The position numbers and the translations under genes were made by a program. Of a stretch of 64,000 bases of DNA, positions 8,479 to 52,167 are shown piece after piece (the first letter of the stretch is position 1; every line of letters begins with the position of its first letter). A model generated the notes under the pieces. It did not search any database and had not been told where the DNA came from. It was given only the letters and a program-made list of their open reading frames with translations. The stretch lies in the NCBI GenBank assembly GCA_015233785.1, contig JADFWT010000001.1, positions 27,752 through 91,751 on the forward strand, written 5' to 3'. This DNA comes from Magnetococcales bacterium (GTDB taxonomy: Bacteria > Pseudomonadota > Magnetococcia > Magnetococcales > JADFWT01).

Positions 8479-8526
8479 GTTGGGTTAAATCAACATCCAC
8501 CTGCAAACCGTGAAAATACGGATAGG

Positions 8527-9081: not shown

Positions 9082-9109
9082 TTGATCCCTTCCAGTATCT
9101 TAATAATTT
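9082..9109 (+). promoter_or_regulatory. Candidate sigma70-type promoter for the first TPR-GT41 array
   Basis: TTGATC (9082-9087), a 16-nt spacer, then TAATTT (9104-9109), about 24 nt upstream of the ATG at 9133. This is a sequence match only. Confidence 0.3.
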
Positions 9110-9132
9110 GTACCCAATGCTCACTGACCGCG

Positions 9133-11358: not shown

Positions 11359-13538
11359 ATCCGCAACAGCCCATCACCCTTGAGCAGGCGTTGCAATGGG
11401 CCATCGACCACCATCAGGCGGGACGCTTTCAGGAAGCGGAGTCGCTCTATCGTCAGATTTTAAATGCCGACCCCAACCAGCCGGATGCCCTGCATCTACT
11501 CGGTGTCATGGCCCATCAGGCGGGGCAGGCCCAGGATGCCGTGCCGATGATCCAAAAGGCTCTGGCCCTGCGCCCCAGGCAGGCGGAAATGCATAACAAT
11601 CTTGGCAACGCCCTCCGGGATCTCGGCCAGATTGAAGCCGCGATTCAAAGCTGTCGTCGAGCCATTGCCCTCAAAAGACGCTTCCCAGAGGCGTACAACA
11701 ATCTGGGTACCGCGCTCTTGCAGCAAGGGGCCTTTCAGCAAGCCGTAAAGCAATTTCGCAAGGCACTCTCCCAGCAGCCGAACTATGTCGCCGCTCACAA
11801 AAACCTCGGCGTTGCCTTGCGCTCCCTGGGCAACACGGACGCGGCCATCGCCAGCCTGCGCCGGGCATTAAACCTCAAGCCCCACGACCCGGAAATTCAT
11901 ATCAATCTCGGCGGACTGCTCACCGAAACGGCACGCTTCGATGAAGCCATAACACATCTGAATCGAGCCGCAGAACTGGCCCCGGATCACCCGGAGAATC
12001 TACACAATCTGGCCCTATACCATCAGAGACAAGGGTGCTTGGCAGAAGCCATCTCCCACTATCACAAGGTGCTGGCGCACCGCCCCAAGGATGCCGAAGC
12101 ACACTTTAATCTGGCCCAGGCTCTGGATAAAAATCGACAATTGGAAGAGGCCATTCAGAGCTACCGGAAGGCCCTCACCTTGGATCCTGGCCATCTGGGC
12201 AGCCATGATAACCTGGCCATTGTGCTGAGCCGAACCGGTATGCTGGATGAAGCCTTGATCCACGCCGAACAGGCCGCCGCCGGCGGGCAGCCCGCCATGA
12301 TTAAAAACTGGCTCAACCTGCAACTCGCCCATCCCGAGACCACATATGATGCACTGTTTAAAGCCTGCGTGAACTGGCGCGATGCGGCCGTGGATCCGGC
12401 CTGCAAACCCTTGATCCGTCAGATGCCCAAGGAGACTCCACCCCGGCTAAAAATAGGCTACCTCTCCTCTGATTTTCGTGACCATCCGGTGGGGCGTAAC
12501 GTCGCGCCGCTGCTGATGAACCACGATCACGACCGGTTTGAAATCACCCTCTACGCCGAACCTCCCAGAGAGGACCACTGGACCGAGCGATTCCAGAAGG
12601 CCGCTGACCGATGGCAAAATATTGCCGGTCTCAGCGACCTTCAGGTAGCCCGGCGTATCCGCAAAGACGGCATCCACATCATGGTCTATCTGGCCGGGCT
12701 ATTCGATACCAACCGCGTACAGGTGGCCGCCCACCGCCCAGCCCCCATTCAGGTGAGCTACCACAGCGGCACCACCACCGCCCTGGAGCAGATGGATTAC
12801 TGGTTCACAGATGAGGCTCTGCACCCGCCGGAGGCTACCTCGGAACAGTTCAGCGAGACCCTGTTCCGCCTGCCCTGTTTTTACGCCTATCCAGAGCCGG
12901 AGCAGGCCCCACCCATCGAACCGCTCCCAGCGCGCCAAAATGGCTACGTCACCTTTGCATCCCTGAATAATCTAAGTAAAATCAATAATAAGGTTATCCA
13001 ACTATGGGCCGCAATTCTGCATGGTGCAGCCGATGCCAGACTGATGCTTAAATATCGGGATCACTTGGATATTCCCTATCTTAAACAATGCATCATAGAG
13101 AGATTCCAGAAGCACGATATCGATACCGAACGGCTGATTCTGATCAGCGCTTTGGAGGACCACCCAAGCCATATGGCCCGCTACCATCAGGCCGACATCG
13201 CCTTGGATCCCTTCCCTTTTACCGGTGCCACCACCACGTTTCAGGCGCTCTGGATGGGGGTGCCGGTGATCACCTTACTGGGAAAGAACTTTATTGGACG
13301 CATGGCAGGGGATATTTTAATCCATACCGGACTGAAAGAACTGGCAACCGAAAGCAGCGACGCCTATTGTAAACAGGCTCTGGCGCTGGCCGGCGACCTG
13401 GATCGCCTGGAGAGGCTACGTCATACGCTGCGCGATCAACTGCTCGCCTCTCCCATATGTCATGAAAATCAATACGCCCAGAGTGTAGAAAGCAGTTACC
13501 AAACTATGTGGCGACAACGAATGAAAGCGAGAACCTGA
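11355..13538 (+). CDS. TPR-GT41 (OGT-like) glycosyltransferase, paralog 2
   Basis: 727-aa ORF with an ATGA start/stop overlap with paralog 1. Motifs: KIGYLSSDFRDHPVGRNVAPL and DIALDPFPFTGATTTFQALWMGVPVITLLG. Confidence 0.9.
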   Translation: MNPQQPITLEQALQWAIDHHQAGRFQEAESLYRQILNADPNQPDALHLLGVMAHQAGQAQDAVPMIQKALALRPRQAEMHNNLGNALRDLGQIEAAIQSCRRAIALKRRFPEAYNNLGTALLQQGAFQQAVKQFRKALSQQPNYVAAHKNLGVALRSLGNTDAAIASLRRALNLKPHDPEIHINLGGLLTETARFDEAITHLNRAAELAPDHPENLHNLALYHQRQGCLAEAISHYHKVLAHRPKDAEAHFNLAQALDKNRQLEEAIQSYRKALTLDPGHLGSHDNLAIVLSRTGMLDEALIHAEQAAAGGQPAMIKNWLNLQLAHPETTYDALFKACVNWRDAAVDPACKPLIRQMPKETPPRLKIGYLSSDFRDHPVGRNVAPLLMNHDHDRFEITLYAEPPREDHWTERFQKAADRWQNIAGLSDLQVARRIRKDGIHIMVYLAGLFDTNRVQVAAHRPAPIQVSYHSGTTTALEQMDYWFTDEALHPPEATSEQFSETLFRLPCFYAYPEPEQAPPIEPLPARQNGYVTFASLNNLSKINNKVIQLWAAILHGAADARLMLKYRDHLDIPYLKQCIIERFQKHDIDTERLILISALEDHPSHMARYHQADIALDPFPFTGATTTFQALWMGVPVITLLGKNFIGRMAGDILIHTGLKELATESSDAYCKQALALAGDLDRLERLRHTLRDQLLASPICHENQYAQSVESSYQTMWRQRMKART

Positions 13539-15652
13539 TGAGCGAAGAGGATTTTGTTGAGCGGGAAATGTCCGTTGAAAGTGCGTTGTCGATGGGCATC
13601 TCTTACCATCAGAAAGGCAACCTGCAAAAAGCGGAGTGGCTCTATCGGAAGATTCTTGAAAAGGTTCCCGACAATCCCGATGCCCTCCACTTTTTGGGCG
13701 TCATCGCCTATCAGGTTAAACAGCCGGATGTCGCCATTCCGCTGATTAAAAAAGCCATTAAAATACGCCCCAATCACGCCGAATCCCATAGCAACCTGGG
13801 GGCGGCACTGCGGGATGCCGGCCAACTGGATGCATCTATCGCCAGCTGTCGCAAGGCACTGGAACTGCGTGCTAATTTCCCTGAAGCCCAGAACAATCTC
13901 GGTGCTGCTCTACTGCGTCAGGATAAATTGAATCGGGCCAGCGCGGCCTTTCGAACCGCCATTGCCCAAAACCCGGAATACCATGCGCCGCATAAAAATC
14001 TGGCCAATATTCTGCACCGTCAGGGCCGCTCGACAGAGGCCGCACTGAGCCTGGAAAAAGCCATCAATCTGAGCCCTAACGACCACGAATCTTACTGCAA
14101 CATGGCCACCATTCTTTCCGAACTCGGCCAGTTTCAAGCGGCCGTTGATCACGCTCAAAAAGCACTGAATCTCGCACCAACCAACGTCAGCGCCCACAAC
14201 ACCATGGGCCTCATCCTCAAAAAAGTCGGCATTCTTGATGACGCCGAAATTGCGTTTCGGAACGCCATCAGCATTGCCGACGGAGCAGGAATCAGCCATA
14301 GCAACCTGGGTGAGATTCTGCTTTCTCAGGGCCACCAGAAAGAGGCGCTGGCCTCCCATAAACGCGCACTGGATATCAAATTACGTGTCAACAACGTTAA
14401 AAACTATCTTCGCGCTTTGCACTATCAAGAGGGCCTGAGCAACGAAAAGCTCTATCGAAAATGCCGCAAGTGGACCAATAAACTGGTAAAATCCGAAACC
14501 ATCACCCCCATGCCTCCACCGCTGATGAAGGATAGCCCCGAGCGGCTGCGCATCGGCTATCTCTCCTCCGATCTGCATAATCATCCCGTGGCGTTCAACA
14601 TGCTTCCGGTGATGGAGAATCACAACCATGACCAGTTTGAGATCTTTATCTACTACGACTCACCCATAAGTGACACCCCCGACTCATCCATGCATGGCAC
14701 GCTGACAGATAGTTTCCAGCAGTATGCCGACCACTGGCGAACAGTGGGAGCGATCAATGACCAACAGATAGCCGAGAAGATCCGCGCAGACCGAATTCAT
14801 ATCATGGTCTACCTGGCCAGTACGTTTGATAATAACCGATTGCTGGTCCCGGCCTACCGGCCCGCACCGATTCAAGTCAGCTATCATAACTGCTCCTCCT
14901 CCACCATCAACCAGATGGATTACTGGCTCACCGACAGCGTGATCCATCCCCCTCTGGATACCGAAGAGCTTTTCTCCGAGGATCTGGTGCGGATGCCCCA
15001 ATTCTACATCTATCCACCGCCCATCAACCTGCCCGACCCAGGGCCGTTACCCAGTAAGAAAAACGGTTACATCACCTTTGTCTCCCTCAACAATCCATCC
15101 AAAATCACCGGGCAGGTGGTGGAGACATGGGGCCGCATCCTCAAGGCGGTACCCGATGCGCGGTTATTGCTGAAATATCGCAACTTTTATAAAAGCAAGG
15201 CGGTGCTCAAGCGCCTGAAAGAACGCCTCGAAGGGATGGAGATAGATCCAGAACGGCTGGAGTATCGCACCGCCATGGACGACCATCCCGACCATCTTGC
15301 CAACTATCTGGATGCCGATATCGCCCTGGATCCCTTCCCATTTACCGGGGCCACCACCACCTTCCAGGCGCTCTGGATGGGGGTGCCGGTGGTCACATTA
15401 ATGGGCAAGCGCTTCATCAGCCGCATGGCCACCGACATCATCGTCCATGCCGGACTTGAAGAACCCCTTGGTGCTGATAACCTGGATGAATATGTTCGCA
15501 AAGCCGTCGCACTGGCAGAAAACCCCACCCGCTTAGCCGAGCTGAGATCCTCTCTTAGGGAACGCATTGCACAATCTCCACTTGTGGACGGTCCACGTTA
15601 TACCCGTAACTTGGAGAAGACCTATCTAGAACTCTGGGACAAACGGCGCTAA
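13538..15652 (+). CDS. TPR-GT41 (OGT-like) glycosyltransferase, paralog 3
   Basis: The ORF is open from 13508. ATG 13538 (MSEEDF) overlaps the upstream TGA by 1 nt, so I prefer it. Motifs: RIGYLSSDLHNHPVAFNMLPV and DIALDPFPFTGATTTFQALWMGVPVVTLMG. Confidence 0.85.
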   Translation: MSEEDFVEREMSVESALSMGISYHQKGNLQKAEWLYRKILEKVPDNPDALHFLGVIAYQVKQPDVAIPLIKKAIKIRPNHAESHSNLGAALRDAGQLDASIASCRKALELRANFPEAQNNLGAALLRQDKLNRASAAFRTAIAQNPEYHAPHKNLANILHRQGRSTEAALSLEKAINLSPNDHESYCNMATILSELGQFQAAVDHAQKALNLAPTNVSAHNTMGLILKKVGILDDAEIAFRNAISIADGAGISHSNLGEILLSQGHQKEALASHKRALDIKLRVNNVKNYLRALHYQEGLSNEKLYRKCRKWTNKLVKSETITPMPPPLMKDSPERLRIGYLSSDLHNHPVAFNMLPVMENHNHDQFEIFIYYDSPISDTPDSSMHGTLTDSFQQYADHWRTVGAINDQQIAEKIRADRIHIMVYLASTFDNNRLLVPAYRPAPIQVSYHNCSSSTINQMDYWLTDSVIHPPLDTEELFSEDLVRMPQFYIYPPPINLPDPGPLPSKKNGYITFVSLNNPSKITGQVVETWGRILKAVPDARLLLKYRNFYKSKAVLKRLKERLEGMEIDPERLEYRTAMDDHPDHLANYLDADIALDPFPFTGATTTFQALWMGVPVVTLMGKRFISRMATDIIVHAGLEEPLGADNLDEYVRKAVALAENPTRLAELRSSLRERIAQSPLVDGPRYTRNLEKTYLELWDKRR

Positions 15653-17731
15653 ATGAACCAGCCTCTCACCATCGAACAGGCCTTCTCTCTGGCTGTTCAG
15701 CATCACGAAGCCGGAGAACTGGAGACGGCAGTAGGGATCTATCAACAGATTCTGACCGCCTCTCCCGGACAGCCCGATACACTGAACAACCTCAGTATCG
15801 CCCTCAAGGATCTGGGCGATCCAGAGGGCGCCGTAGCCTCTGCTAAAGAGGCCATTGCCGCCCGACGCAACTACCCGGAAGCCCACAATAATCTCGGCAA
15901 CGCCCTGCGAGAGACCGGCCGCTTGAAAGAGGCCGCCATCAGCTATCGGACCGCCCTGAAACAGCGCTCCCGATATGCCGAAGCCCATAACAATCTCGGC
16001 ATCGTAGAGAAAAGCCTGGGACGCATGAAAGAGGCGGTGATCAGCTACCGGAAGGCGCTGGCCATTCAGCCCCGGTTTCCCGAAGCTCTAAACAACCTCG
16101 GCAACGCCCTCATCGCACTGGGCGAGGTGGAACAGGCCCAAGCCTGCTTTGAAAAAGCACTGATCCAAAAGCCCGACTACGCCGAAGCCCATAACAACTT
16201 CAGCAACATGCTGCGAGAAGCGGGCGACTTTAAAGCGGCCATCAAGCAGGCAGAGCAGGCTCTGACACTGAAACCTGACTACGCCGAAGCCCACAATAAT
16301 CTGGCCGCTGCCCACAGCCTCAACCAACGTACCGATCTGGCCCTACCCCACTTTGAGAAGGCCCTGACCCTCAATCCCCAGCACGCCGAATCCCACAGCA
16401 ACCTTGGCAACAGCCTGACCCGACTGGGATGTTTTGATCAGGCTATGCACCACTATCAGGCGGCACTCACCTGCGATGCCGATCTGGAACGGGTGAAGAA
16501 TCTTGTCAACACCATGCTCTATGTGCCCGACCTACCTCAAAAAACCATCTTTGAGGCCCACCAGCGCCACATCAACGCTGCACTTCCGACCGGTATCGCG
16601 CCGCTGCTGAAACCGGGCCGGTTGCCACGCTTGGCGAAAGGAAATCGGCTCAAAATAGGCTATCTCTCCTCGGACCTCAGGGATCATCCGGTGGGGCGAA
16701 ACGTCCTGCCGCTACTCACCCATCATGATCCGAAACAGGTGGAGATTACCGTCTATGCCCAGTGGGATGCAGATGATGAGATCGCTCGTAAATTTAAACA
16801 GGCGGTGCAACGCTGGCGGCCCATCCACGCGCTGAATGACCAACAGGCAGCACAGCGAATCCATAAGGATGGTATCCATATTCTGGTCTTTCTGGCCCCG
16901 CTGTTCGACACCAACCGACCTCTGATTGCTGCCTACCGCCCCGCCCCCATCCAGGTGAGCTTTCACAATGGGGCCACCACCGGACTCGATGCCATGGACT
17001 ACTGGATCACCGACAACGTGCTCCACCCGGAAGGCGCCGTGCAGGAGTCCTTTACCGAACAGCTCTTTCGACTGCCGGTGTTCTACAACTACCCCCCCAT
17101 TGAAGATGCGCCGGATCTGTCGCCTCTACCGCTGGAGCGTCAAGGCCACGTCACCTTCGGCTCTCTCAACAACCCCTCCAAGATCAACACACAAGTCATT
17201 GACCTATGGGCCGGAATTCTCAACAAGATTCCAGATTCCCGGTTGATTCTCAAGTACCAGGATGCCCTGCATGATCCCCCGGTCAAAGCGCGCATTCTGG
17301 AGCAATTCGAAGGGCTGGGTATCCATGGGGATCGCCTGGAGTTGATCTGCGAAAAAGATGGACTCTCCCAGCATCTGGCGCTCTATCAACGCGTGGACAT
17401 TGCACTGGATCCATTCCCATTTACCGGGGCCACCACCACCTTCCAGGCGCTCTGGATGGGGGTACCGGTCATCACGCTACTCGGTGAGAGCTTTATCCAA
17501 CGCATGGCGGCGGACATCATCATCCATAGCGGCCTGCAAGAGCTGGCTGCGGAGAATAAGGAACAGTACCAATCCCTGGCGGTGGAACTGGCCAATGCCC
17601 CCGCTCGACTGGCAACCCTGCGTCAGGAGCTGAGACAACGCCTGATGGACTCTCCCATCTGCGATGCGTCGCGCTATGCCGAACATGTTGAACGGGCCTA
17701 TCTTGAGATGTGGCAGCGCCTGGATGGTTAA
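15653..17731 (+). CDS. TPR-GT41 (OGT-like) glycosyltransferase, paralog 4
   Basis: 692-aa ORF whose ATG directly abuts the upstream TAA. It has six consecutive TPR units with (Y)(A/P)EAHNNLG, plus KIGYLSSDLRDHPVGRNVLPL and DIALDPFPFTGATTTFQALWMGVPVITLLG. Confidence 0.9.
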   Translation: MNQPLTIEQAFSLAVQHHEAGELETAVGIYQQILTASPGQPDTLNNLSIALKDLGDPEGAVASAKEAIAARRNYPEAHNNLGNALRETGRLKEAAISYRTALKQRSRYAEAHNNLGIVEKSLGRMKEAVISYRKALAIQPRFPEALNNLGNALIALGEVEQAQACFEKALIQKPDYAEAHNNFSNMLREAGDFKAAIKQAEQALTLKPDYAEAHNNLAAAHSLNQRTDLALPHFEKALTLNPQHAESHSNLGNSLTRLGCFDQAMHHYQAALTCDADLERVKNLVNTMLYVPDLPQKTIFEAHQRHINAALPTGIAPLLKPGRLPRLAKGNRLKIGYLSSDLRDHPVGRNVLPLLTHHDPKQVEITVYAQWDADDEIARKFKQAVQRWRPIHALNDQQAAQRIHKDGIHILVFLAPLFDTNRPLIAAYRPAPIQVSFHNGATTGLDAMDYWITDNVLHPEGAVQESFTEQLFRLPVFYNYPPIEDAPDLSPLPLERQGHVTFGSLNNPSKINTQVIDLWAGILNKIPDSRLILKYQDALHDPPVKARILEQFEGLGIHGDRLELICEKDGLSQHLALYQRVDIALDPFPFTGATTTFQALWMGVPVITLLGESFIQRMAADIIIHSGLQELAAENKEQYQSLAVELANAPARLATLRQELRQRLMDSPICDASRYAEHVERAYLEMWQRLDG
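15875..16411 (+). repeat. 102-nt periodic intragenic tandem repeat (six TPR units) inside paralog 4
   Basis: The block GCCGAAGCCCA(C/T)AA(C/T)AA(C/T)CT and its variants recur at 15875, 15977, 16079, 16181, 16283 and 16385. The spacing is exactly 102 nt, i.e. 34 codons. Confidence 0.9.
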
Positions 17732-17743
17732 CCGGACCACGGA

Positions 17744-19642
17744 TCAGGTGAGAAACTCACGCCAGAGCGGCTCCAGAGAGTCCCGATAGTTCTCCCAGGC
17801 CATCACCGAACTGCTGTAGATGGGCTTACGAACCTGACTGACGCTGGCTGTGGTCACCACCCGCTTGTTCTTATGAAACGCCATGCAGCGCGCATCCCAC
17901 CCCAGGTTGCAGTGCTCCAGAAGCAGGCGGGTCTCCCGCTCCTGATCCGCCACCAGCGCCTCGTAAGAGAGATCATAAATTCTGCCGGGCGCCACCCGAT
18001 GCCAATGCGCCATCAACGACTGATAGGCCCGGTAGTAACGCCCCAACTCGGAGAGGTGGTAGGCGTAGGGATGCGGCTCGCTGAACAGGGTCTTGAAGAT
18101 GGAAAAACAGGTGCCCATGGGATGGCGCACGCAGTGGATAATCTTCGCCTTGGGCAGCGCCGAGAGAATCCATCCTATATGCATATAATTATTGGGCATC
18201 TTATCAACAATATAGGGCGACTCAGGCGCACAGGCATGCAGTGCCTCCAGATAGCGCTGGCCCATGGTGCGAATCTGCTCGCCACTCAAGGCCCGGCTAT
18301 CCTGCCGCCAGCTCACCGGCGGACCAACTCGCCCTCCTGAGTTATGAGAAATCTCCCGCCAGAGCTTCTGCACCTCCAGCGGCATCTGTACCCGCTCTCC
18401 GGCGCCATACACCTGCGGGTGGCTGGAGAGTATCTGCTCAGCCAACGTGGTGCCGGAACGAGGCATGCCGAGAATAAAAATCGGTGCTTTATCCTCAACA
18501 CCGAACCTCTGCCAGCGAGCCAGGAAATCGGCATCCATCATCTCTTGGAGAAATCCAAAGCGCGCCTCGTCCTCCGTGACAAAGTAGCGATGACGCGTCC
18601 GCTCCATGCGATTGCCCGCCGCCAGATGATCAAAGGCGCGACGATGATCCCCAAGATCCTCATGCAGCTTGCCTAACGCAAAGGCTAGATTGGTGCGCTC
18701 AAAACGGCTGATGCCGCGCTTGGTGTAGAGCCGCTGCATCGCCTCGGTATAATGATTGGTCTCCCGCATCCGCCCGCAGGAGACCATGTGCCGATAGGCG
18801 ATGGCGCAAGAGGGATCGATGGTGACCGCCTGCTCAAAAGCTGTCCGTGCCTCCTCCAGACGCCCCAACCCTTTGAGTGTCACCCCAAGATTGTTGTAGG
18901 TGGCGGCTTGTTGCGGGTTCAGCTCCAGTGCCTGCCGATAGCACACCTCCGCCTCTTCCAGTCGCTCCAGCATCCGTAATGTATTGCCGAGATTACCCAG
19001 GGCATCCGGGTAGTTGGGACGTATCTTCAACGCTTGACGAAAATGGTCGTGGGCCTCCTGGAAGCGGTTTTTGGAGACCAAAAGATTGCCCAAATTATTA
19101 TGGGCAGCAGCCAGAGTGGGCTTGTGATGAATGGCGCGCTCAAAACTGCGCATCGCCTCTTGAATCTGACCGCGATCCTTATGGGTCAGCCCGAGATTGT
19201 TGTGGGCCTCCGCCAGATCGGGCTTAAGAACAATCGCCCGATGCAAGGCCACCCCCGCCGCCTCCAAACGCCCCTGAAGACGCAACAGATGGCCCAAATT
19301 GTTATAGGCCATGGGGTTGTTGGGCTGTAGCGCCAACGCCTTGCGGTAGCAGGCCATGGCACCGCTTCTATCTCCCAAATCAAAACGCGTGATGCCAAGA
19401 TTATTCAGCGCCGGAGCCATCTTCGGATTGGCGGCCAGGGCATATTCAATCAACCGCCTGGCATCCTGCATCCGGCCCTGCTGCCGAGCAATGAGACCCT
19501 GTCTGTGCAGCGCCTCGGCATAGTGGGCGTCCGCCGGTGAGATGGCCTCAAATCGGGCCAGCGCTTCATCCAATGCCCCCTGCTGATGCAGCGCCATTCC
19601 CTGCTGAAAAATCGCCTGAAAGTTGGACGCCTGGGCCACCAT
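17744..19642 (-). CDS. TPR repeat protein fused to a sulfotransferase domain (TPST/RaxST-like PAPS-binding motifs)
   Basis: The ORF is open to 19714. I prefer ATG 19642 (MVAQASNF), which has GGGGGAG about 7 nt upstream. N-terminal TPRs are followed by FILGMPRSGTTLAEQIL (5'-phosphosulfate-binding loop) and IIHCVRHPMGTCFS (3'-phosphate motif region). Confidence 0.85.
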   Translation of the reverse strand: MVAQASNFQAIFQQGMALHQQGALDEALARFEAISPADAHYAEALHRQGLIARQQGRMQDARRLIEYALAANPKMAPALNNLGITRFDLGDRSGAMACYRKALALQPNNPMAYNNLGHLLRLQGRLEAAGVALHRAIVLKPDLAEAHNNLGLTHKDRGQIQEAMRSFERAIHHKPTLAAAHNNLGNLLVSKNRFQEAHDHFRQALKIRPNYPDALGNLGNTLRMLERLEEAEVCYRQALELNPQQAATYNNLGVTLKGLGRLEEARTAFEQAVTIDPSCAIAYRHMVSCGRMRETNHYTEAMQRLYTKRGISRFERTNLAFALGKLHEDLGDHRRAFDHLAAGNRMERTRHRYFVTEDEARFGFLQEMMDADFLARWQRFGVEDKAPIFILGMPRSGTTLAEQILSSHPQVYGAGERVQMPLEVQKLWREISHNSGGRVGPPVSWRQDSRALSGEQIRTMGQRYLEALHACAPESPYIVDKMPNNYMHIGWILSALPKAKIIHCVRHPMGTCFSIFKTLFSEPHPYAYHLSELGRYYRAYQSLMAHWHRVAPGRIYDLSYEALVADQERETRLLLEHCNLGWDARCMAFHKNKRVVTTASVSQVRKPIYSSSVMAWENYRDSLEPLWREFLT

Positions 19643-19717
19643 GACACGCTCCCCCTGCTGAAGTGATCGAAAAAGAGATATTAACACGCATGACGACGCG
19701 GTTGAATGCGACAATTA

Positions 19718-22087
19718 TCAATTTGTCGTCAACGCCTTAAAAACCTTCTCCGCACCAGGTGGAATGCTGGTGAGATGCAGCTGCAACGTCCCCGCCTCTT
19801 CATCCTGGGCCATCACCTTGCCGTAGAGCTGATCGGAGATAGAGAGACCATCGGCATCAAACAGCTCCAGTTGCAAATTGGTCAGACGCCGCGCCTTGAG
19901 ACGGGTTGCAATCTCCAAGAGCTTACCGTCCATGGCGCTGATACGACCGGCATGACGCGCCTTATCACTCCGTTTGCCCTCCAGAACCGCCATCATCACC
20001 TCCGGGCCATTCTCCAGAAACTTTAACTCAGGAGGCCTCGGCTCCGGCAACTGAATGCCGTAAAGGCCTCGAATACCGCCAATCAGGTAGATGGGAACCG
20101 GCTCGGGAACCCCCTTTAAGGAGACCCGCCATTCATCATCGATGCGGGCCAGATTGTTGCACCCCTTCAGGGTGGTCTCAGAGATCAACACCTGCCCACC
20201 AATGGTTTGCGACTCCACCCGTGCCGCCAGATTGATGGTCGCCCCCACGACGCCGTACTTGGCCCGCAGATCCGAACCGATATTTCCAGCTACCACCGAT
20301 CCGCTGTTGATGCCAATCCCCATGGCCGCTTCGGGAAAGCCACGAGCACCGAACTTGGCATTCACCTCCGGCATCGCTTTCTGCATCTCCAGGGCGCAGG
20401 CCACCGCCCGCTGGGGATCATCCTCATGGGTAACCGGCGCGCCAAACAGCGCCAGAATGCCATCGCCAAGGAACTCAATGATGGTGCCGCTATATTTCAG
20501 GATGATCTCGGTCATGCGCTCCAGATAGATGTTGAGCATGGAGATCACCTCTTCCGGCGGCAAGCGCTCGCTAATGGCGGTGAAGCCCCGCAGGTCGGAC
20601 ATCATCACCGTCACCTCCTTCTGCTCACCCCCCAGACGCAACCCCTCGGGTCGATCCAGAATCGATGCCACCACCTCATCGGACATATAGCGCCCAAAGG
20701 TCTTGCGAATAAACAGGTTGGCCCGATTCAGCCCCTCATTGAGGTGCTTCTGCTCAAACAACATATGCTCCAACTCTTTGTTGAGCTGACCCTTCTCCTC
20801 CGTGGCCTGCTCGGCACTCTCCAAAGCCTTCTGCAACTCCTCTTGCGTGTGTTTGCGCTCCACCGCCACCTGCAACACAAACGCCAGTTGGTCGATCACC
20901 TCACGCGCCTCATCGGTGATCTGTATCGCCCCTTCCAGATGGAGAAAAAAGAGCGCAAAAACAGTATCACGCCCCGGTGAGAAGAGCGGAATCAACAGTC
21001 GTGCGCCATCCAGATCTTCGGGAAACTGCTCCTCATAGCCATGCTGGTGGTGCACCTTCCAACTACTGCGATCCTGAGAGAAGTAACGCATGAACTGGAG
21101 GGGGAGCATCACCACTTCGCCCGCATAGCCGCTCTCGGCACTCAGACGAAGCCCCTGACCATTGTCGCGAAGGGTGTAGAACTCCATGCCGGCGGCGGGA
21201 AGCATTCGGCGAGTAATCTCCAGAAGCGCTTCCACAATCTGGTCAAACTCCCGGTGGGCAACCATCGCCTCTTTAATATCCCGCAACATATCGTTGAGCG
21301 TGGTCAGCCGTCGCACATCGGTACTATCTGCCGCTTTCAGATAGAGCCCGCAATCCAATTTTTTCAGGCGGCTGAAAATCTCGGGGACCAGGTGACCGGG
21401 AATAATGGAGCCGTGCTGGGGGGCTATCATGCCGAGCTCCAGCTTCTCCAGCTTCAAAAGCCCATTGAGCAGCACCTCTCGGCTAGGCATGTAGTGCTCG
21501 TGAAATGGGCGCATCGCCTCAAAATAGTCGGCATCCCGAGCCACCAATGTCCAGTCGTCGGTAAAGCCGCCAAACAGATCGCTGGAGAATAGAATGCGAC
21601 TCTCCTCATCATAGGTGCAGAACGCCCCAGGAAAGTGCAAATAGGGGGTGAAGACAAATTTCAGCCGACGACTGCCAAGATCAAGATGCCAGCCGTGATC
21701 CTGCTCGATACACTTTAATGGCATTTTGAGATCATAATGCTTAAGCAGTACGTTGGCCCGCCAATGGCTGAGAAGATAGGCATCATCCCGCGTCACCATG
21801 GCGTCAATGGTGGGCATGATGGCTGTGATGTCGGGATCCTGATGCTGGCAGAGAAAATATCGAATATTACTGAATTCGGTAATCTTCTTGATCTTTTCCA
21901 GGGTGTGATCAAAGGTGAGCTTGGAGCCGGGATCAAACAGAACCGATTGATCGCCGTTCTCAATCAGATAGGCGTGGCACTGAAAAGGATCCCCAGGAAG
22001 ATAGTGGCCAACCCACCAGGTGCGATCTGCAATCTCAATGGGATGATCGGCGGAGGCGTATTGAATGTGATCTAAAGGGTCGCTCAT
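19718..22087 (-). CDS. Class III nucleotidyl cyclase with N-terminal metallo-beta-lactamase/flavodiiron-like domain and GAF-like linker (cyclase 1)
   Basis: The ORF is open to 22171, but I prefer ATG 22087 (MSDPLDHIQY). The N-terminus reads WWVGHYL...CHAYLIENGDQSVLFDPG...LCQHQDPDITA...HFPGAF...SSDLFGG...APQHGSII. The catalytic domain reads VTVMMSDLRGFT...IIEFLGDGILALFGAP...KYGVVGATINLAARVES. Confidence 0.85.
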   Translation of the reverse strand: MSDPLDHIQYASADHPIEIADRTWWVGHYLPGDPFQCHAYLIENGDQSVLFDPGSKLTFDHTLEKIKKITEFSNIRYFLCQHQDPDITAIMPTIDAMVTRDDAYLLSHWRANVLLKHYDLKMPLKCIEQDHGWHLDLGSRRLKFVFTPYLHFPGAFCTYDEESRILFSSDLFGGFTDDWTLVARDADYFEAMRPFHEHYMPSREVLLNGLLKLEKLELGMIAPQHGSIIPGHLVPEIFSRLKKLDCGLYLKAADSTDVRRLTTLNDMLRDIKEAMVAHREFDQIVEALLEITRRMLPAAGMEFYTLRDNGQGLRLSAESGYAGEVVMLPLQFMRYFSQDRSSWKVHHQHGYEEQFPEDLDGARLLIPLFSPGRDTVFALFFLHLEGAIQITDEAREVIDQLAFVLQVAVERKHTQEELQKALESAEQATEEKGQLNKELEHMLFEQKHLNEGLNRANLFIRKTFGRYMSDEVVASILDRPEGLRLGGEQKEVTVMMSDLRGFTAISERLPPEEVISMLNIYLERMTEIILKYSGTIIEFLGDGILALFGAPVTHEDDPQRAVACALEMQKAMPEVNAKFGARGFPEAAMGIGINSGSVVAGNIGSDLRAKYGVVGATINLAARVESQTIGGQVLISETTLKGCNNLARIDDEWRVSLKGVPEPVPIYLIGGIRGLYGIQLPEPRPPELKFLENGPEVMMAVLEGKRSDKARHAGRISAMDGKLLEIATRLKARRLTNLQLELFDADGLSISDQLYGKVMAQDEEAGTLQLHLTSIPPGAEKVFKALTTN

Positions 22088-22424: not shown

Positions 22425-24653
22425 ATGGCAACGCCTCCCACTCCCACGACACTCATTGAGCTATTCCACCTGGGCGTAGAACACCACCATGCCGGACGAC
22501 TCCCAGAAGCGGAGACACTCTACCGGCAGATTCTGGAAGCCGACCCCTTGCAGGCCGAAGTGTGGCATCAAATAGGCCTGCTTGCCTACCAGTTGGGCCA
22601 GCCCCAACAAGCGACCCAACTGATCGGAGAAGCCCTGCGCCTGCGCCCCGACGATGCCGCCGCCCATTGCAACATGGGCAACGCCTTGGCCGACTGCGGC
22701 GCGTGGGATCAAGCCGTGGCACACTTGCACCAGGCAACCACCTTGCAGCCCGCCATGCCGGAAGCCCATCTCAATCTGGGCAACACACTGCGCAGGCGCG
22801 GCGGACCAGGGGATCTGGAGGCCTCCCTGGAGAGCTGTCAAGCGGCCATCCGGCTGCGTCCAGCCATGCCGGAAGCCCACCTGAACTGTGGCAATGCCTT
22901 GAAAGCGTTGGCGCGTTACGATCAAGCCGTCACAGCCTTTGGCAGAGCGATCCGGTTGGCCCCCGATTATGCCGATGCCTACAGCAATCTCGGCAGCACG
23001 CAACAAGCGTTAGGCCAATTGGATGAGGCCATTGCCAATCATCATCATGCCATCTCCCTAAATCCCAACCAGGGACTCTTTCATGGAAATCTTGGCCATG
23101 CATTGCGGGAGAAAGGGCTACTTGAACAAGCACTTAAAAGCTTCCGCACCGCCGCCACACTGAGCCCGGACCAGGCCAAAGTTCATGACGATCTTGGTCA
23201 AATTCTCTCGCAACTGGCATGCCCAGACCAGGCCCTGGCCTGCTTTGAGACCGCCCTGAAACTGGAGCCGGATAGCGCTCACCTCCTCCAGCAGATGGCC
23301 CTACAACTCAACGATATGGGGCGTACCGAAGAGGCGCTGACATCGCTCCAACAAGCAGTGGCATTGGCCCCAGACCGCCCTGAACTACACGCCTCCTTGA
23401 TCTTTACCAAAGACATGACGCCGGGTATTGAGATACAGGCTCAACAAACAGAGCGACAACGCTGGGTGAAGCGCTACTGCTCCAAGGTCCATGCCGGGAC
23501 GCACCACCCTAACAATCCTGACCCGGCACGGCGATTACGAGTCGGCTATGTCTCTGCCGATTTTCATCTCCACTCGGCAGCCTCTACCTTCGGGGCCTGC
23601 CTGCTGCACTACGATAGAGATCAATTCGAACTGTACGCGTACGCCAACAACCGCACACGCCCCGATCAACCGGATGATGCCGTCACCGAAAAGTTTCGGC
23701 GCTCGGTGGACCACTGGCGGGATATCGCCCATCTGGACGATGATGCCCTGGCCACTTTGGTTCGCCGAGACCGCATTGATATTCTGGTGGATCTCTCCGG
23801 TCACTCCACCGGCAACCGGCTGGAGCTCTTCGCCCGGCGTCCAGCCCCTATTCAATGCACAGGCTGGGGCTACATCCAGGGAACCGGCATGAAGACCATC
23901 GACTATCTGATTACAGATCCAGTGATTCTTCCTCCGATTCAGCGTCCAACAATTACGGAAGAGGTACTGGATCTACCTTGCGGCGTGCATCTGCAACCCC
24001 TTGGAAAATGGCCGGAACCTGCGCCCATTCCAGCCTTGAAGCGTGGCTTCATCACCTTTGGAACCTTCCACCGCACCGACAAGATCAACGCCAAAACACT
24101 CAAGCTCTGGGCCAAGGTTTTGGCAGCGGTTCCCCATTCGAGACTTCTGATCAAAATTCCCAAAAATAGCACCGATTTTTTTGGGGGCTATTATCGGCAG
24201 AGCTTCAAGAGTCACGGCGTTGATCCTCAACGTATTGAGCTTTTAGGGGCCACCTCTCAATTTGATCATCTGGCCTGCTTCAATAAGGTGGATATCGCCT
24301 TGGACCCCACGCCGCACTGTGGCGGCGTTACATCGCTGGAGGCACTTCGCATGGGAACGCCGGTAGCAACGCTCTGGTGCGAGACCATCGCAGGCCGGCT
24401 CTCCGCATCATTTAACGCCACCCTGAACTTGGCATCCTGGACCGCAGAGTCCGAGTCGCAATTCATTGAGATTGTTAAGATAAAATCATCCGATATTTCA
24501 AACCTATCCAAGCTAAACAGCAGCCTTCGAGAGCGCTTTGACCGCTCTATCCTGGGAGATCATAAGCTCTATATGCACCATCTGGAGGCACTCTACCGGC
24601 AGATCTGGCAACGATGGGTAGCCGACCATCTCCCCAGCCATGACGCAAGCTGA
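22425..24653 (+). CDS. TPR-GT41 (OGT-like) glycosyltransferase, paralog 5 (subfamily B)
   Basis: 742-aa ORF with variant motifs RVGYVSADFHLHSAASTFGACLL and DIALDPTPHCGGVTSLEALRMGTPVATL. Confidence 0.85.
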   Translation: MATPPTPTTLIELFHLGVEHHHAGRLPEAETLYRQILEADPLQAEVWHQIGLLAYQLGQPQQATQLIGEALRLRPDDAAAHCNMGNALADCGAWDQAVAHLHQATTLQPAMPEAHLNLGNTLRRRGGPGDLEASLESCQAAIRLRPAMPEAHLNCGNALKALARYDQAVTAFGRAIRLAPDYADAYSNLGSTQQALGQLDEAIANHHHAISLNPNQGLFHGNLGHALREKGLLEQALKSFRTAATLSPDQAKVHDDLGQILSQLACPDQALACFETALKLEPDSAHLLQQMALQLNDMGRTEEALTSLQQAVALAPDRPELHASLIFTKDMTPGIEIQAQQTERQRWVKRYCSKVHAGTHHPNNPDPARRLRVGYVSADFHLHSAASTFGACLLHYDRDQFELYAYANNRTRPDQPDDAVTEKFRRSVDHWRDIAHLDDDALATLVRRDRIDILVDLSGHSTGNRLELFARRPAPIQCTGWGYIQGTGMKTIDYLITDPVILPPIQRPTITEEVLDLPCGVHLQPLGKWPEPAPIPALKRGFITFGTFHRTDKINAKTLKLWAKVLAAVPHSRLLIKIPKNSTDFFGGYYRQSFKSHGVDPQRIELLGATSQFDHLACFNKVDIALDPTPHCGGVTSLEALRMGTPVATLWCETIAGRLSASFNATLNLASWTAESESQFIEIVKIKSSDISNLSKLNSSLRERFDRSILGDHKLYMHHLEALYRQIWQRWVADHLPSHDAS

Positions 24654-24762
24654 TCGTGGAATCATAAGGCCCATCTCTTTAAACGACTGAAAAGAACGCT
24701 TAGGATGAGTGCCTATCGAACCCATAGACCGTTCACCACCGCTGGAATCATCCGAGCCCACC

Positions 24763-26988
24763 ATGCCCACATCGCCCCACTTGCCTACCCCGGAAGAAGC
24801 ACTCCAACGCGCCATCGAACACCATGAAGCGGGGCATCTCACGGATGCAGAAGCGCTCTATCGCCAACTCCTGACCACGCACCCCCAACACGCCATGGCC
24901 TGGCATCGACTGGGACTGCTGGCGCTTCAGGTGGGACAGCCCCAGCAAGCCTCCCAGTTTATCGGCGAGTCCCTGCGCCTGGAGCCCAACGATGTCGCCG
25001 CCCTCTGCAACATGGGCCATGCCCTGGCCAGCTTCGGTGAATTCGACACCGCCATCACCCATCTACAACAGGCCACAGCCCTGCAACCAAACATGCCCGA
25101 GGCCCACCTTAATCTGGGTGAATTCCTACGTCTACGAGGAGCCGTTGGAGATTTGACGGCGTCGGAAGCCAGTTGCAGAGAGGCCATCCGCCTGCGTCCC
25201 AGCATGCCGGAGGCACACAATAATCTTGGCACGCTCCTCAAAGAGAGAAAACGTTACGGTGAGGCGGTCGAGGCCTTTGAAAAGGCGCTCCGCTTGGCCC
25301 CGAAATATGCCGACGCCCACACCAATCTCGGCACGACCTATGAGGCAATGGGACGTCTGGACGAGGCGATTGCCAGCCACAAGAAGGCCATTGACATCGC
25401 CCCTGAAAGCGGTCTGTATCACAGCAATCTAAGCCATGCTCTGATGACCAAAGGAGATCTGAAAGCCGCCAGAGAAAGCGGCGAGATGGCGGTTAAGCTA
25501 CACCCCGATTTGGCAAAGATTCACGCCAACCTTGGGCAGGCCCATATTCGTCTCGGCAGGCCCGATCAAGCGCTCATCTGCTTTCAAAAGGCTACCGAGC
25601 TTGAACCCAATCACGCCACTTATCTCAACCAGATCGGTGCCAATCTGGCCGATATGGGGCGCTGCACGGAAGCACTGGAGCCCTTAAGACGTGCATCCGC
25701 CATGGATCCCGGCAACCCGGAACTACATAATGCGCTGATCTTCTTTCTGGATATGACCCCTGGCGTCCAAACCGGTGATCATCAGCAAGAGCGACAGCGA
25801 TGGGTGGAACGCTTCCTGGCGGACACGGTTCCGTTTGGAAAGCACCATAACGATCCAGACCCACAACGCCCGCTTCGGGTGGGGTATCTCTCCTCCGATT
25901 TTCACAGCCACTCGGCAGCCTCCACTTTCGGAGCCTGTCTGCTGCACTACGATCGAACGCAATATGAGCTGTTCTGCTACGCCAACAATCAGCAGGGAGT
26001 CGGTAAGTGCGAAGATGAGGTGACCAATCGATTCCGTCAGTCGGTGGATCACTGGCGAGAAATCTCCCATCTGGACGATGAGGAAGTGACCCAAATGATT
26101 CGCTCGGATTGCATTGATATTCTGGTGGACCTATCCGGCCACACCACCGGCAACCGGCTTCGGGTCATGGCCCGACGTCCGGCCCCGATTCAATGCACCG
26201 GCTGGGGCTATAATCTCGGCACCGGGCTCTCCGCCATCGACTATCTGGTGATCGACCCGATCATGCTCCCCCCGGAAGAGCGCCCCCTTTTTGCCGAACA
26301 AGCGATGGATCTCCCCTGCGGTATCCATCTGCAACCGTTAACCGATTGGCCTGAACCAGCTCCGCTCCCGGCCCTGACCCATGGTACCATCACCTTCGGC
26401 TCGTTTAACCGCACCTGCAAAATCAACCCGGAGTTGCTGGCCTTATGGGGCCGACTGCTGGTCGCTGTTCCCGAATCGCGCATGCTCTTCAAAATCCCCA
26501 AACTGGAGACCGACTTCTACCTCAACTACTATCGTGAGGTGCTGGCTTCCCACGGCGTGGAGCCGCAACGGGTGGAGGTGCTGGGATCTACTTCACAATA
26601 TGAGCATCTGGCAGCCTTCAACCAGGTGGATATCGCCCTGGATCCCATCCCTCAAGGAGGCGGCATCACCTCGCTGGAAGCACTGCGTATGGGCGTGCCG
26701 GTCCTGACGTTGAAATACCCCACCATCACCGGGCGTCTGACCGCTTCGTTCTGCCATGCTTTGGATTTGGAGGATTGGGTCGCAGAGCGCCCGGAGGCCT
26801 GGATCGCCATCGCCCAAAAAAAAGCCCAAGATCTCGATGCTCTGGCTGCGCTTCGACGGGGACTTAGAGTGCGCTTTGACGACTCCATACTCGGCAATCA
26901 TGCCCTCTATATGCACCACCTGGAGCGACTCTATCGACAGATGTGGAAACGCTGGTCGGCTGGCCAATCAGAGCGTGCCCAGCTTTAA
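24763..26988 (+). CDS. TPR-GT41 (OGT-like) glycosyltransferase, paralog 6 (subfamily B)
   Basis: The ORF is open from GTG 24709. ATG 24763 (MPTSPHLPTPEEALQRAIEHHEAG) fits paralog N-termini better. Motifs: RVGYLSSDFHSHSAASTFGACLL and DIALDPIPQGGGITSLEALRMGVPVLTL. Confidence 0.8.
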   Translation: MPTSPHLPTPEEALQRAIEHHEAGHLTDAEALYRQLLTTHPQHAMAWHRLGLLALQVGQPQQASQFIGESLRLEPNDVAALCNMGHALASFGEFDTAITHLQQATALQPNMPEAHLNLGEFLRLRGAVGDLTASEASCREAIRLRPSMPEAHNNLGTLLKERKRYGEAVEAFEKALRLAPKYADAHTNLGTTYEAMGRLDEAIASHKKAIDIAPESGLYHSNLSHALMTKGDLKAARESGEMAVKLHPDLAKIHANLGQAHIRLGRPDQALICFQKATELEPNHATYLNQIGANLADMGRCTEALEPLRRASAMDPGNPELHNALIFFLDMTPGVQTGDHQQERQRWVERFLADTVPFGKHHNDPDPQRPLRVGYLSSDFHSHSAASTFGACLLHYDRTQYELFCYANNQQGVGKCEDEVTNRFRQSVDHWREISHLDDEEVTQMIRSDCIDILVDLSGHTTGNRLRVMARRPAPIQCTGWGYNLGTGLSAIDYLVIDPIMLPPEERPLFAEQAMDLPCGIHLQPLTDWPEPAPLPALTHGTITFGSFNRTCKINPELLALWGRLLVAVPESRMLFKIPKLETDFYLNYYREVLASHGVEPQRVEVLGSTSQYEHLAAFNQVDIALDPIPQGGGITSLEALRMGVPVLTLKYPTITGRLTASFCHALDLEDWVAERPEAWIAIAQKKAQDLDALAALRRGLRVRFDDSILGNHALYMHHLERLYRQMWKRWSAGQSERAQL

Positions 26989-28469
26989 ACGTCGTCCCCA
27001 AATATTCTATGCCGTTTGGTATTCTGACGCTCATACTGCTGGATATCAATACGCTTGGACATGTAATCCTGCCACACTTCACGACGACGACGTGCAATGT
27101 AACCCCTCTCCACGCCCTCCAAACGAATATTCTCCTTGGACCAGCGAATATCAAATCCGTCAAAATCGTCGTGAAACAGCTTCTCCTCCAGACATTGACG
27201 GTAGAGCGCCGTTCCAGGCAGAGGGTTGACAATGGAGAATGAGAGACGATCAAACCCATACTGGGTCGCCCGCTGAAAAGTGTGATCTATCTGCTCTTTG
27301 GTCTCACCAGGAAAACCCACCATAAAGACCCCCTCGGTAATCAATCCTGCCTTCTGGCACTTTTCCACAATCTTCTCAATACGATCCAAATTGACCCGCT
27401 TGGCCACCATGCGGTCCTGCACTTCCGCATTGGCACTCTCTACGGCAAGAAAAATCTTATTGAATCCCGCCTCCGCCATCAGTTCGATCATCTCATCGTC
27501 AAATGCGTTGACCTCCCCGCCACTGGGTACCTGGTAACGGAGGTCAGGCGTCTCCCGAATCACCCGCCGGAGCAACGTTTTGACCCGTTTGCGATGGATA
27601 AAAAAATTGTCGTCCCAAAAATGGATCTCGTCGGGATTGTAACGCGCCCGATTGTGGTGAATCTCGGCCATCACGTCGTCGATTTCACGCAGCCGATAGT
27701 GTCGCCGACTGGTCATGGGAGCCGTGCAGAAACCGCAGTTATGGGGACAGCCGCGAGAGGTGAGCATAATCATGAAGCGCTTCTCTCCTTCATGCACCTC
27801 ATAGTCGGCCAACCCGGCCTGCCAATACCGCTGAAGATCGACCTTGTCCCAGGCAGGCCAGGGTAGATCCTCCACCAAAGGGGGCTGGTAGTCCTCCACC
27901 TGATGAAAGCCTGCTGTGGTTTTGTAGATAAGCTGTCCGACCCTATCCAGAGGATGCCCGCCGTTGATCGCCCTGATCAGCCTTGGAAGCGCCAAATCAG
28001 ACTCGCCAAAGAGCAGATAGTCCACATGGGGATCAAGCACCATCTCCGGCATTCCAGAGGGGTGCTGCCCCCCCATCACCAGATGGGCTTCCGGGCATGT
28101 CTGTTTGGCCATCTTTGCCAATTTCAACACATCCTGAGCCCTGTTTGAAAAGGGACAACTGATCCCTATCATGTCAGGCTTATAGGCTTCCAGTTTGCGG
28201 CGGATGGCCGCATCGTCCAGGCCATAATAGATGGTACGACCCACCACACGCTCCTGCTGATACCCCTCAATCAAGGCATCAAGAATCTCCACCTGCACAT
28301 CAAGCAACTGAAGCTGCGCAGCCAGATAGGCTAATCCAAGAGGTGGAACAGCCAGCTTACGCTCCCTGGAACCCTCTTTGGTGAGGGTGATCTTGCCCGC
28401 TGGAGCGATAAGAAGCACCCGGCGGATCGGAGAACGTAAAGTAGGATAGAGTGCATGTGGAGTAGTCAT
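26985..28469 (-). CDS. B12-binding-domain radical SAM enzyme (class B radical SAM)
   Basis: 494-aa ORF. The N-terminus is a Rossmann-like B12-binding region (RVLLIAP...DMIGISCPFSN...HLVMGGQHPS). The radical SAM cluster motif is SRGCPHNCGFCTAP (CX3CX2C). Its stop overlaps the convergent paralog 6 stop by 4 nt. Confidence 0.85.
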   Translation of the reverse strand: MTTPHALYPTLRSPIRRVLLIAPAGKITLTKEGSRERKLAVPPLGLAYLAAQLQLLDVQVEILDALIEGYQQERVVGRTIYYGLDDAAIRRKLEAYKPDMIGISCPFSNRAQDVLKLAKMAKQTCPEAHLVMGGQHPSGMPEMVLDPHVDYLLFGESDLALPRLIRAINGGHPLDRVGQLIYKTTAGFHQVEDYQPPLVEDLPWPAWDKVDLQRYWQAGLADYEVHEGEKRFMIMLTSRGCPHNCGFCTAPMTSRRHYRLREIDDVMAEIHHNRARYNPDEIHFWDDNFFIHRKRVKTLLRRVIRETPDLRYQVPSGGEVNAFDDEMIELMAEAGFNKIFLAVESANAEVQDRMVAKRVNLDRIEKIVEKCQKAGLITEGVFMVGFPGETKEQIDHTFQRATQYGFDRLSFSIVNPLPGTALYRQCLEEKLFHDDFDGFDIRWSKENIRLEGVERGYIARRRREVWQDYMSKRIDIQQYERQNTKRHRIFGDDV

Positions 28470-33158: not shown

Positions 33159-33240
33159 GAAACCTTTACAGAGGGCCGGGCTTAACAAACACGATAGGCG
33201 TAACCGCACGCCCAGCCCTCTTCGCTGAGACGCGATCACG

Positions 33241-52163: not shown

Positions 52164-52167
52164 CCGG

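Follow-up and report, generated by a model that had tools for sequence, protein, structure and literature searches.

A 64,000-nucleotide stretch of a metagenome-assembled genome (MAG) of a Magnetococcales bacterium (assembly GCA_015233785.1, contig JADFWT010000001.1, positions 27,752 to 91,751 of the forward strand; the window in what follows) encodes a protein in which a sensor domain from the family of oxygen-binding diiron proteins (ODPs), with the metallo-beta-lactamase (MBL) fold, is fused to a class III nucleotidyl cyclase of the Cya2 type. From the N terminus, the domains are the ODP domain, a GAF-like domain, a helical linker with a cyclase transducer element (CTE), the Cya2-type cyclase, and a PilZ-like domain. 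This fusion of domains is real and far beyond chance. It is also rare, being the first ODP-cyclase architecture found, with cyclic GMP (cGMP) as its predicted output. We propose, with a probability of about 0.6, that the diiron ODP domain reports Fe(II) and O2 and, through the GAF-like domain, the helical linker, and the CTE, controls a homodimeric Cya2-type guanylate cyclase. An initial annotation, made from the sequence alone, had described an ODP-type diiron sensor domain, a GAF-like segment, and an intact class III cyclase in one protein; all computational tests agree with the sensor domain and the cyclase, and the predicted topology is compatible with the GAF-like segment.

The coding sequence is an uninterrupted frame that starts with an ATG at position 22087, with every catalytic and ligand residue preserved. 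Its product is 100% identical to the NCBI entry "hypothetical protein HQL53_00165" of a Magnetococcales bacterium MAG (P0001 in our collection of homologues). An AGGAG lies 14 nt 5' of the ATG. An alternative in-frame TTG at 22171, 84 nt 5' of the ATG, is possible as a start; the homologue P0002, which is 85% identical, has the same first residues as the product of the ATG, and the family alignment shows hardly any variation at M1. The four sequence motifs quoted in the initial annotation were all recovered, LCQHQDPD at residues 79-86, HFPGAF at 151-156, SSDLFGG at 168-174, and APQHGSII at 222-229.

Sequence and structure searches both assign the N-terminal domain to the ODP family. The Pfam model PF19583 ("ODP family beta lactamase") matches residues 35-226 over its entire length (profile positions 1-194 of 194) with E=1e-59 and 202.2 bits against a cut-off of 27.2. 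In a sequence search of the PDB, the top matches were the ODPs of Thermotoga maritima (6qrq/6qwo, E=6e-24) and Treponema denticola (6qnm/6r9n, E=7e-22), followed by flavodiiron proteins at about 1e-12, and the first ordinary MBL-fold protein appeared at an E of about 1e-2. An AlphaFold2 (AF2) model of residues 1-470, with a mean pLDDT of 89.7, was compared to the PDB using Foldseek. Ranks 1-8 were occupied by ODP chains, among them the peroxo-diiron form 6r9n, with E of about 1e-16; flavodiiron proteins came next, and hydrolytic beta-lactamases were found only from about rank 41. The fit to the ODP chains gave TM-scores of 0.79-0.86 (normalised to the ODP chain) and, for most of them, an rmsd of 2.8-3.2 Å over about 245 columns. 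Superposition on flavodiiron and ODP structures had been suggested in the initial annotation as a check, with an ordinary hydrolase-type MBL as the outcome that would speak against a diiron sensor. The predicted fold proved closest to ODP structures, with flavodiiron structures next, and such a hydrolase did not emerge, as hydrolytic MBLs stand far down the fold ranking and the H-x-H-x-D-H motif is absent.

All seven ODP-type ligand positions, H82, D84, D86, H151, D170, Q224, and H225, are invariant in an alignment of 118 relatives. A survey of the MBL superfamily records that the T. maritima ODP has a Gln at motif 5 which replaces the third His of motif 2 (PMC7785958). Judged by the alignments, H-x-D-x-D and the PQHG Gln are the ligands usual in ODPs and no deviation; the residue that follows H-x-D-x-D is Ile in this protein and Val in the solved ODPs. 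The initial annotation had presented H-x-D-x-D as standing in place of the H-x-E-x-D-H of flavodiiron proteins. The motif is present as stated, but it is not an unusual substitution, since the solved ODPs carry it too. Its description of the domain as "flavodiiron/ODP-like" has to be narrowed in the same way: the domain belongs to the ODP family and is not flavodiiron, having neither H-x-E-x-D-H nor a flavodoxin domain. Two papers that summarise Muok et al. 2019 (PMC7319448, PMC6978683) describe ODP as a sensor of Fe(II) and O2 that has been recruited to several signalling pathways and is also fused to signalling domains. By its ligands, the domain studied here would likewise be expected to hold a diiron centre and bind O2.

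Two other assignments of the domain were considered and rejected. A flavodiiron enzyme is at odds with the motif H-Q-D-P-D-I and with the lack of a flavodoxin match, and the NCBIfam flavorubredoxin models reach 45 bits on this protein against cut-offs above 600. A hydrolytic MBL is at odds with HQDPDI in the place of the H-x-H-x-D-H zinc motif and with the position of hydrolases below rank 40 in the fold search.

The C-terminal half contains the class III cyclase domain, matched by PF00211 at residues 489-669 with E=4e-27. The class III essentials are in place, namely the metal-binding residues D498 and D542 and the transition-state residues N619 and R623, and the catalytic domain is therefore intact, as had been annotated. 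The closest PDB match to this half is the phytochrome-Cya2 chimera 6fht (E=8e-71), in an alignment that extends into the linker and places the FIRKTFGRY region on the Cya2 linker. The catalytic domain of Cya2 (2w01) is matched with E=3e-60 and 50% identity over 197 ungapped columns.

The substrate of class III cyclases is related to two positions. The base-specifying position is Lys in adenylate cyclases and Glu in guanylate cyclases, and the second specificity position is Asp or Thr in adenylate cyclases, Cys or Ser in animal guanylate cyclases, and Gly in Cya2. Cya2 was the first bacterial guanylate cyclase to be characterised structurally and is GTP-specific via this unusual Glu-Gly pair (PMC6005667). 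The Cya2 active-site residues D448, R450, E488, D492, G562, N569, R573, and K608 (PMC6005667) correspond, at a constant offset of +50, to D498, R500, E538, D542, G612, N619, R623, and K658, so that eight of eight are kept. A single E488K exchange turns Cya2 into an adenylate cyclase that uses ATP (PMC5995499), and the engineered adenylate-cyclase chimera 6fht accordingly reads TIDKFMGDG, with Lys, where native 2w01 and the protein of the window have Glu. The Glu-Gly pair, the 50% identity to Cya2, and the eight conserved active-site residues together predict that the product is cGMP made from GTP, and not cAMP. Among the relatives collected, Glu occupies the base-specifying position in 199 of 204 and Gly the partner position in 197 of 221. 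On this basis, the database label "adenylate cyclase" is probably wrong for the whole family; it is carried by the JGI entry P0003 ("class 3 adenylate cyclase"), by REC-linked relatives ("adenylate cyclase"), and by 2w01 in its PDB molecule name. The specificity pair and the domain of about 110 aa that follows the catalytic domain were both absent from the initial annotation.

The C-terminal domain has no Pfam match, even at E<=10. An AF2 model built on an alignment of 122 relatives (pLDDT 83.8) shows a six-stranded barrel and a C-terminal helix, and its best Foldseek matches are PilZ domains (4xrn, Alg44 4rt0/4rt1, BcsA, and MapZ; TM 0.5-0.67). Neither of the motifs that bind cyclic di-GMP (c-di-GMP), RxxxR and (D/N)xSxxG, occurs in the family alignment of this domain. 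A canonical c-di-GMP-binding PilZ domain was rejected on the absence of both motifs and of a Pfam PilZ match. Conserved positions of the barrel are G704, K705, G714, N737, Y755, K757 (invariant), T773, and P776, with H712 and D744 less strictly kept. Used alone as a query, the C-terminal 113 aa yielded no homologue, not even the protein itself, which reflects a word-index limit and is not evidence of absence; relatives of the domain were retrieved with a query of 341 aa. The cassette of CTE, cyclase, and PilZ-like barrel occurs behind REC, CHASE2, GAF, and histidine kinase-REC inputs (the relatives P0121-P0239, P0340, and P0357 carry the barrel), and the CHASE2 protein P0357, with E=1.5e-79 to 2w01, aligns with our protein as far as residue 784. 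Cya2 is known to possess a "structurally uncharacterized C-terminal extension", the truncation of which left chimeras almost inactive (PMC5995499). Because the barrel is shared with P0357, a close relative of Cya2, it very probably corresponds to this extension.

Between the sensor and the cyclase lie the middle domain and the linker. For residues 255-391 approximately, AF2 predicts two helices and three strands, then another two helices and another three strands, followed by a long helix, with pLDDT mostly 84-96. This topology is compatible with the GAF-like segment of the initial annotation, whereas the match to GAF sequence profiles is weak and under the cut-off. The model GAF_3 matches the protein with E=0.016, below its curated cut-off, and reaches E=0.00086 at most, which is still below it; in a Pfam scan of the 27-member middle-domain alignment, it matched two members. 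An hhalign comparison with the bona fide GAF domains of a neighbouring cyclase aligned the last 52 columns only (strand-strand-helix, P=0.0014), and a profile search of the PDB with the middle domain gave no match. In view of these weak profile matches, the domain is called GAF-like on account of its topology only. Its family alignment shows few conserved polar positions, a pattern suggestive of a transducer and not of a further site for a ligand. From residue 392 to 469, the model consists of one helix. Within it, VAVER and FGRY stand exactly 52 aa apart in each of the four ODP-cyclase proteins, despite an overall identity of 63-85%, as expected for a register-sensitive helical linker. The concept of the CTE and its FGRY motif has been described (PMC5995499).

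The sensor module is widespread, with 1823 significant matches. Most of the best 120 of these 1823 are ODP-GGDEF proteins of about 600 aa, and several are ODP-hybrid histidine kinases of about 1185 aa. Magnetococcales, Mariprofundaceae, Ca. Magnetobacterium, Competibacteraceae, and Rhodospirillales are frequent among these 120, and the first three are organisms of iron or O2 gradients. Whether the output is GGDEF, a histidine kinase, or the cyclase, this ODP subfamily comes with the GAF-like domain and a helix with the sequence LQVAVER. A joint alignment of GGDEF and cyclase proteins was discarded because the output domains of the two groups were misaligned in it. The cyclase cassette is abundant too, with 5877 matches to the 341-aa query.

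The combination of the two halves is confined, among the matches listed, to four proteins (P0001-P0004) that are 63-85% identical over their whole length, come from separate records (two from NCBI, one each from JGI and Logan), and form a single cluster at 50% identity. In a HMMER search of 1.84 billion cluster representatives, P0002 alone spans both halves among the best 150 and the rest match one half; distant ODP-cyclase fusions from other subfamilies would score below the best 150 and hence be missed. A scan of 185,579 species-representative genomes of GTDB, which detects close relatives only, returned relatives that join ODP to other outputs or the cyclase to other inputs, and no ODP-cyclase. 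P0002 (NCBI HQL53_03585) lies on a 37.7-kb contig and has the same locus-tag prefix as the protein of the window, and the MAG thus apparently contains two copies with 85% identity; P0002 is either a recent paralogue or belongs to a second strain in the MAG bin. P0003 lies on a contig of 4.3 kb. In the literature, no paper on ODP-cyclase or ODP-GGDEF enzymes was found, and the remark in the initial annotation that no characterised example was known holds for the ODP-cyclase, whether described or characterised. Fusions of ODP with signalling domains had already been noted bioinformatically by the discoverers of ODP, according to the summary in PMC7319448. Since such fusions were noted earlier and a Pfam family exists, the protein is not a new kind of system.

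The domain identities, the conserved ligand and catalytic residues, the modularity, and the rarity of the fusion come directly from the analyses above. From these data, we infer the following mechanism, in which the binding of iron and O2, the sense in which activity is regulated, the specificity for GTP, the homodimer, and the function of the C-terminal domain are all to be read as predictions. The protein would be a soluble sensor-enzyme, probably a homodimer. Its ODP domain would bind two iron ions via the seven ligands named above and switch among metal-free, ferrous, and O2-bound (peroxo-diferric) states, as in the stand-alone ODPs of chemotaxis, and this conformational switching would report Fe(II) availability and O2. 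The signal would be relayed by the GAF-like domain to the length-constrained helical linker, which is presumably a coiled coil in the dimer, and from there to the CTE with its FGRY motif, which would set the relative placement of the two catalytic domains. The Cya2-type catalytic domain would then turn GTP into cGMP. The PilZ-like barrel is a part of the cyclase cassette and, to judge from the C-terminal extension of Cya2, would be needed for full activity.

Several points weigh against this mechanism. Statements on how ODPs work rest on secondary sources and on the titles of PDB entries, and there is no experiment on this protein or, as far as the literature shows, on any enzyme-fused ODP. 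With the two solved ODPs, the domain shares only about 23-26% identity, and second-sphere residues that tune reactivity towards O2 versus NO or H2O2 may therefore differ. A zinc-reconstituted ODP exists, according to the title of PDB entry 6qwo, and the native metal is thus unproven by sequence. Among the genes of the window, neither a cGMP receptor or cyclic-nucleotide-binding effector nor a phosphodiesterase was found. Moreover, the two specificity residues do not always reveal the substrate of a class III cyclase; a mutational study of Ma1120 reportedly deals with such substrate preferences.

Some of these points can be turned into alternative explanations. The ODP domain might sense NO, H2O2, the redox state, or another metal (Zn, Mn) rather than O2 and Fe(II), as the domain has its fold and some of its ligands in common with flavodiiron NO/O2 reductases, and the zinc-reconstituted structure and the low identity to characterised ODPs point the same way. 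We consider this rather unlikely, given a ligand set exactly as in the ODPs that are reported to sense Fe(II) and O2 and given the frequency of the module, among the best 120 of 1823 matches, in organisms of Fe(II)/O2 interfaces; the candidate signals at the metal site are not separable from sequence alone. At the other end of the protein, the same architecture might work as an adenylate cyclase with cAMP as its output, and the database names of P0003, the REC-linked relatives, and 2w01 say as much. These names are automatic or historical, however, and the protein named in 2w01 was shown to be GTP-specific with its Glu-Gly pair (PMC6005667) and requires E488K for the adenylate-cyclase form (PMC5995499). 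With Glu538 and Gly612 in a protein 50% identical to Cya2, a cAMP output is unlikely.

The MBL superfamily is mostly hydrolytic, and PF00753 also matches the N-terminal domain (E=1.5e-11), which could be taken to indicate a hydrolase, for example a cyclic-nucleotide phosphodiesterase that would make the protein a bifunctional synthase/hydrolase. This is very improbable: H-x-D-x-D-I is found instead of H-x-H-x-D-H, sequence and fold searches alike place hydrolytic MBLs far behind ODPs and flavodiiron proteins, and the occurrence of the same module on GGDEF and kinase outputs fits an input domain. Finally, the source is a MAG and the architecture is known from only four sequences, which might raise the suspicion of an assembly or binning artefact or of a decaying gene. 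Such an origin is scarcely credible for four full-length sequences from separate NCBI, JGI, and Logan records that differ from each other by the margin given above and share the same 52-aa linker at the junction, in addition to an open reading frame (ORF) that is uninterrupted and intact in its catalytic and ligand residues.

The proposed Fe(II)/O2-responsive guanylate cyclase resembles several known systems in part. With the ODPs of T. denticola and T. maritima (6qnm, 6r9n, 6qrq, and 6qwo), it shares the fold, the pattern H-x-D-x-D / H / D / Q-H, and the lack of a flavodoxin domain, and the proposed role of ODP is that of a sensor, not an enzyme. Characterised ODPs are stand-alone proteins of about 250 aa that act on an adjacently encoded chemoreceptor, whereas here the domain is joined covalently to a cyclase via the GAF-like domain and the helical linker. 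The ODP-GGDEF proteins and ODP-hybrid histidine kinases, which are uncharacterised and abundant in metagenomes, have a sensor module 40-55% identical to ours over residues 1 to about 415, but their outputs are c-di-GMP synthesis or a phosphorelay instead of a cyclase. Cya2 of Synechocystis PCC 6803 (2w01, chimera 6fht) has in common with our protein the Glu-Gly pair, six other active-site residues, FGRY, and a C-terminal extension of similar size; Cya2 resides in the membrane and has an extracellular CHASE2 sensor (PMC5995499), whereas the present protein is a cytoplasmic one whose sensor is ODP/GAF-like. Flavodiiron proteins (FprA, ROO, and the flavorubredoxin NorV) contain a related diiron MBL-fold domain, but they combine H-x-E-x-D-H with a fused flavodoxin domain and catalytic turnover of O2 or NO, and the protein described here has neither that motif nor a flavodoxin domain. 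In haem-based gas-sensing cyclases, such as soluble guanylate cyclase and globin-coupled diguanylate cyclases, and in hemerythrin sensors, a gas-binding metal centre controls second-messenger synthesis via a helical linker. The logic would be the same here, with a predicted non-haem diiron centre in an MBL fold in place of haem or a four-helix hemerythrin.

Table 1. Features of the ODP-cyclase gene and of the surrounding window (window positions; aa, residues of the protein)
Feature	Position	Strand	Evidence or remark
Whole coding sequence	19718..22087	minus	789 aa + stop; ORF list and translation
ODP sensor domain, MBL fold, aa ~16-250	21338..22042	minus	Pfam, PDB sequence search, AF2/Foldseek
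H82-Q-D84-P-D86, MBL motif 2 in ODP form, three predicted iron ligands	21830..21844	minus	HQDPD identical in both solved ODPs
H151 (LHFPG), motif 3, predicted iron ligand	21635..21637	minus	aligns with His of LHS(T/P)G in solved ODPs
D170 (SSD), motif 4, predicted bridging ligand	21578..21580	minus	aligns with Asp of FSGD in solved ODPs
Q224-H225 (APQHG), motif 5; Gln replaces motif-2 His	21413..21418	minus	same MIAPQHG in the two solved ODPs
Divergent GAF-like alpha/beta domain, aa ~255-391	20915..21325	minus	AF2 topology, weak profile matches
Long linker helix, aa 392-~460, with CTE FIRKTFGRY (aa 459-467) at its end	20648..20914	minus	AF2, family spacing
Cya2-type catalytic domain (class III nucleotidyl cyclase), aa 489-672	20072..20623	minus	PF00211, PDB sequence search
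E538, predicted base-specifying residue	20474..20476	minus	TIIEFLGDG here, TIDEFMGDG in native Cya2
G612, predicted second specificity position	20252..20254	minus	KYGVVGA identical to Cya2
PilZ-like beta-barrel + helix, ~110 aa, aa ~680-789	19721..20050	minus	AF2 + Foldseek
TPR-sulfotransferase	17744-19714	minus	starts within 3 bp of the stop of the ODP-cyclase gene
TPR + GT41 paralogue array, unusually dense	9082-17731, 22425-26988, 30453-32444, 50262-62629 and others		domain content
Cya2-type cyclase 2, ~180-aa N-terminal region without Pfam match	28760-30388	plus	FGRY, Glu-Gly pair, PilZ-like C-terminal domain
Cya2-type cyclase 3, GAF-GAF input	37075-39195	minus	FGRY, Glu-Gly pair, PilZ-like C-terminal domain
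Hemerythrin, 140 aa	8527-8949	minus	PF01814 E=2e-13
REC-GGDEF-EAL protein	45382-48075	minus	
Single-domain response regulator	48374-48808	plus	
B12-binding radical SAM protein	26985-28469	minus	
FkbM methyltransferase	44419-45354		
Type I secretion ABC permease/ATPase (HlyB-like), then HlyD-family adaptor	2080-6373	plus	
GDT1/TerC-like divalent cation transporter	32529-33239	minus	
HTH + S24-peptidase (LexA/CI-like) repressor	33575-34261	minus	

The window is dominated by at least 15 paralogous glycosyltransferases of the TPR + GT41 (O-GlcNAc-transferase-like) type, of about 600-780 aa and with N-terminal TPR repeats (Table 1). No terminator-like site was found between the ODP-cyclase gene and the TPR-sulfotransferase gene next to it, and a scan for promoters and terminators around the former gave results at chance level; a functional link between the two genes is not evident. 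Two further Cya2-type cyclases are encoded in the window, one of which is 50% identical to the C-terminal half of the ODP-cyclase over 353 aa. Three predicted guanylate cyclases in 64 kb suggest a sizeable cGMP network. Genes of c-di-GMP signalling are interspersed with these cyclases. The hemerythrin which the initial annotation had mentioned as encoded nearby is indeed present. It lies about 10.8 kb from the cyclase, with several unrelated genes between them, and is therefore not its operon partner. A rhodanese-domain protein adjoins the hemerythrin (the pair lies within 8011-8949, minus strand).

Bacterial cGMP signalling has been called "poorly understood" in a study of Xanthomonas XC_0250 (PMC3770947). 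It is known from few cases, such as Cya2, Rhodospirillum centenum, and XC_0250, and little is known of the natural signals by which guanylate cyclases of bacteria are controlled. A domain swap in itself would not surprise a specialist, and if neither Fe nor O2 regulated the enzyme, the protein would reduce to ordinary domain shuffling. The ODP-cyclase nevertheless represents a testable input-output pair, as both modules have relatives with structures, the sensor with Fe(II)/O2 chemistry and the cyclase with a specificity switch, and the control of bacterial cGMP synthesis thereby becomes a question that can be tested directly. It may serve as a non-haem counterpart of soluble guanylate cyclase, as a model for the transmission of ODP states within a single polypeptide, and possibly as an O2- or iron-responsive cGMP tool.

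A wider interpretation is attractive but tentative, and we hold it to be somewhat more doubtful than probable. The protein would then be the first non-haem diiron gas and iron sensor of the MBL fold to gate a guanylate cyclase directly, the Magnetococcales would read out their place in the Fe(II)/O2 gradient as cGMP, the organism would have a sizeable cGMP network, and the PilZ-like C-terminal barrel might be a hitherto unrecognised regulatory or nucleotide-binding module of guanylate cyclases in bacteria. Nothing on cGMP in magnetotactic bacteria was found in the literature. For these organisms, cGMP may represent a route of O2 and iron sensing beside c-di-GMP and chemotaxis.

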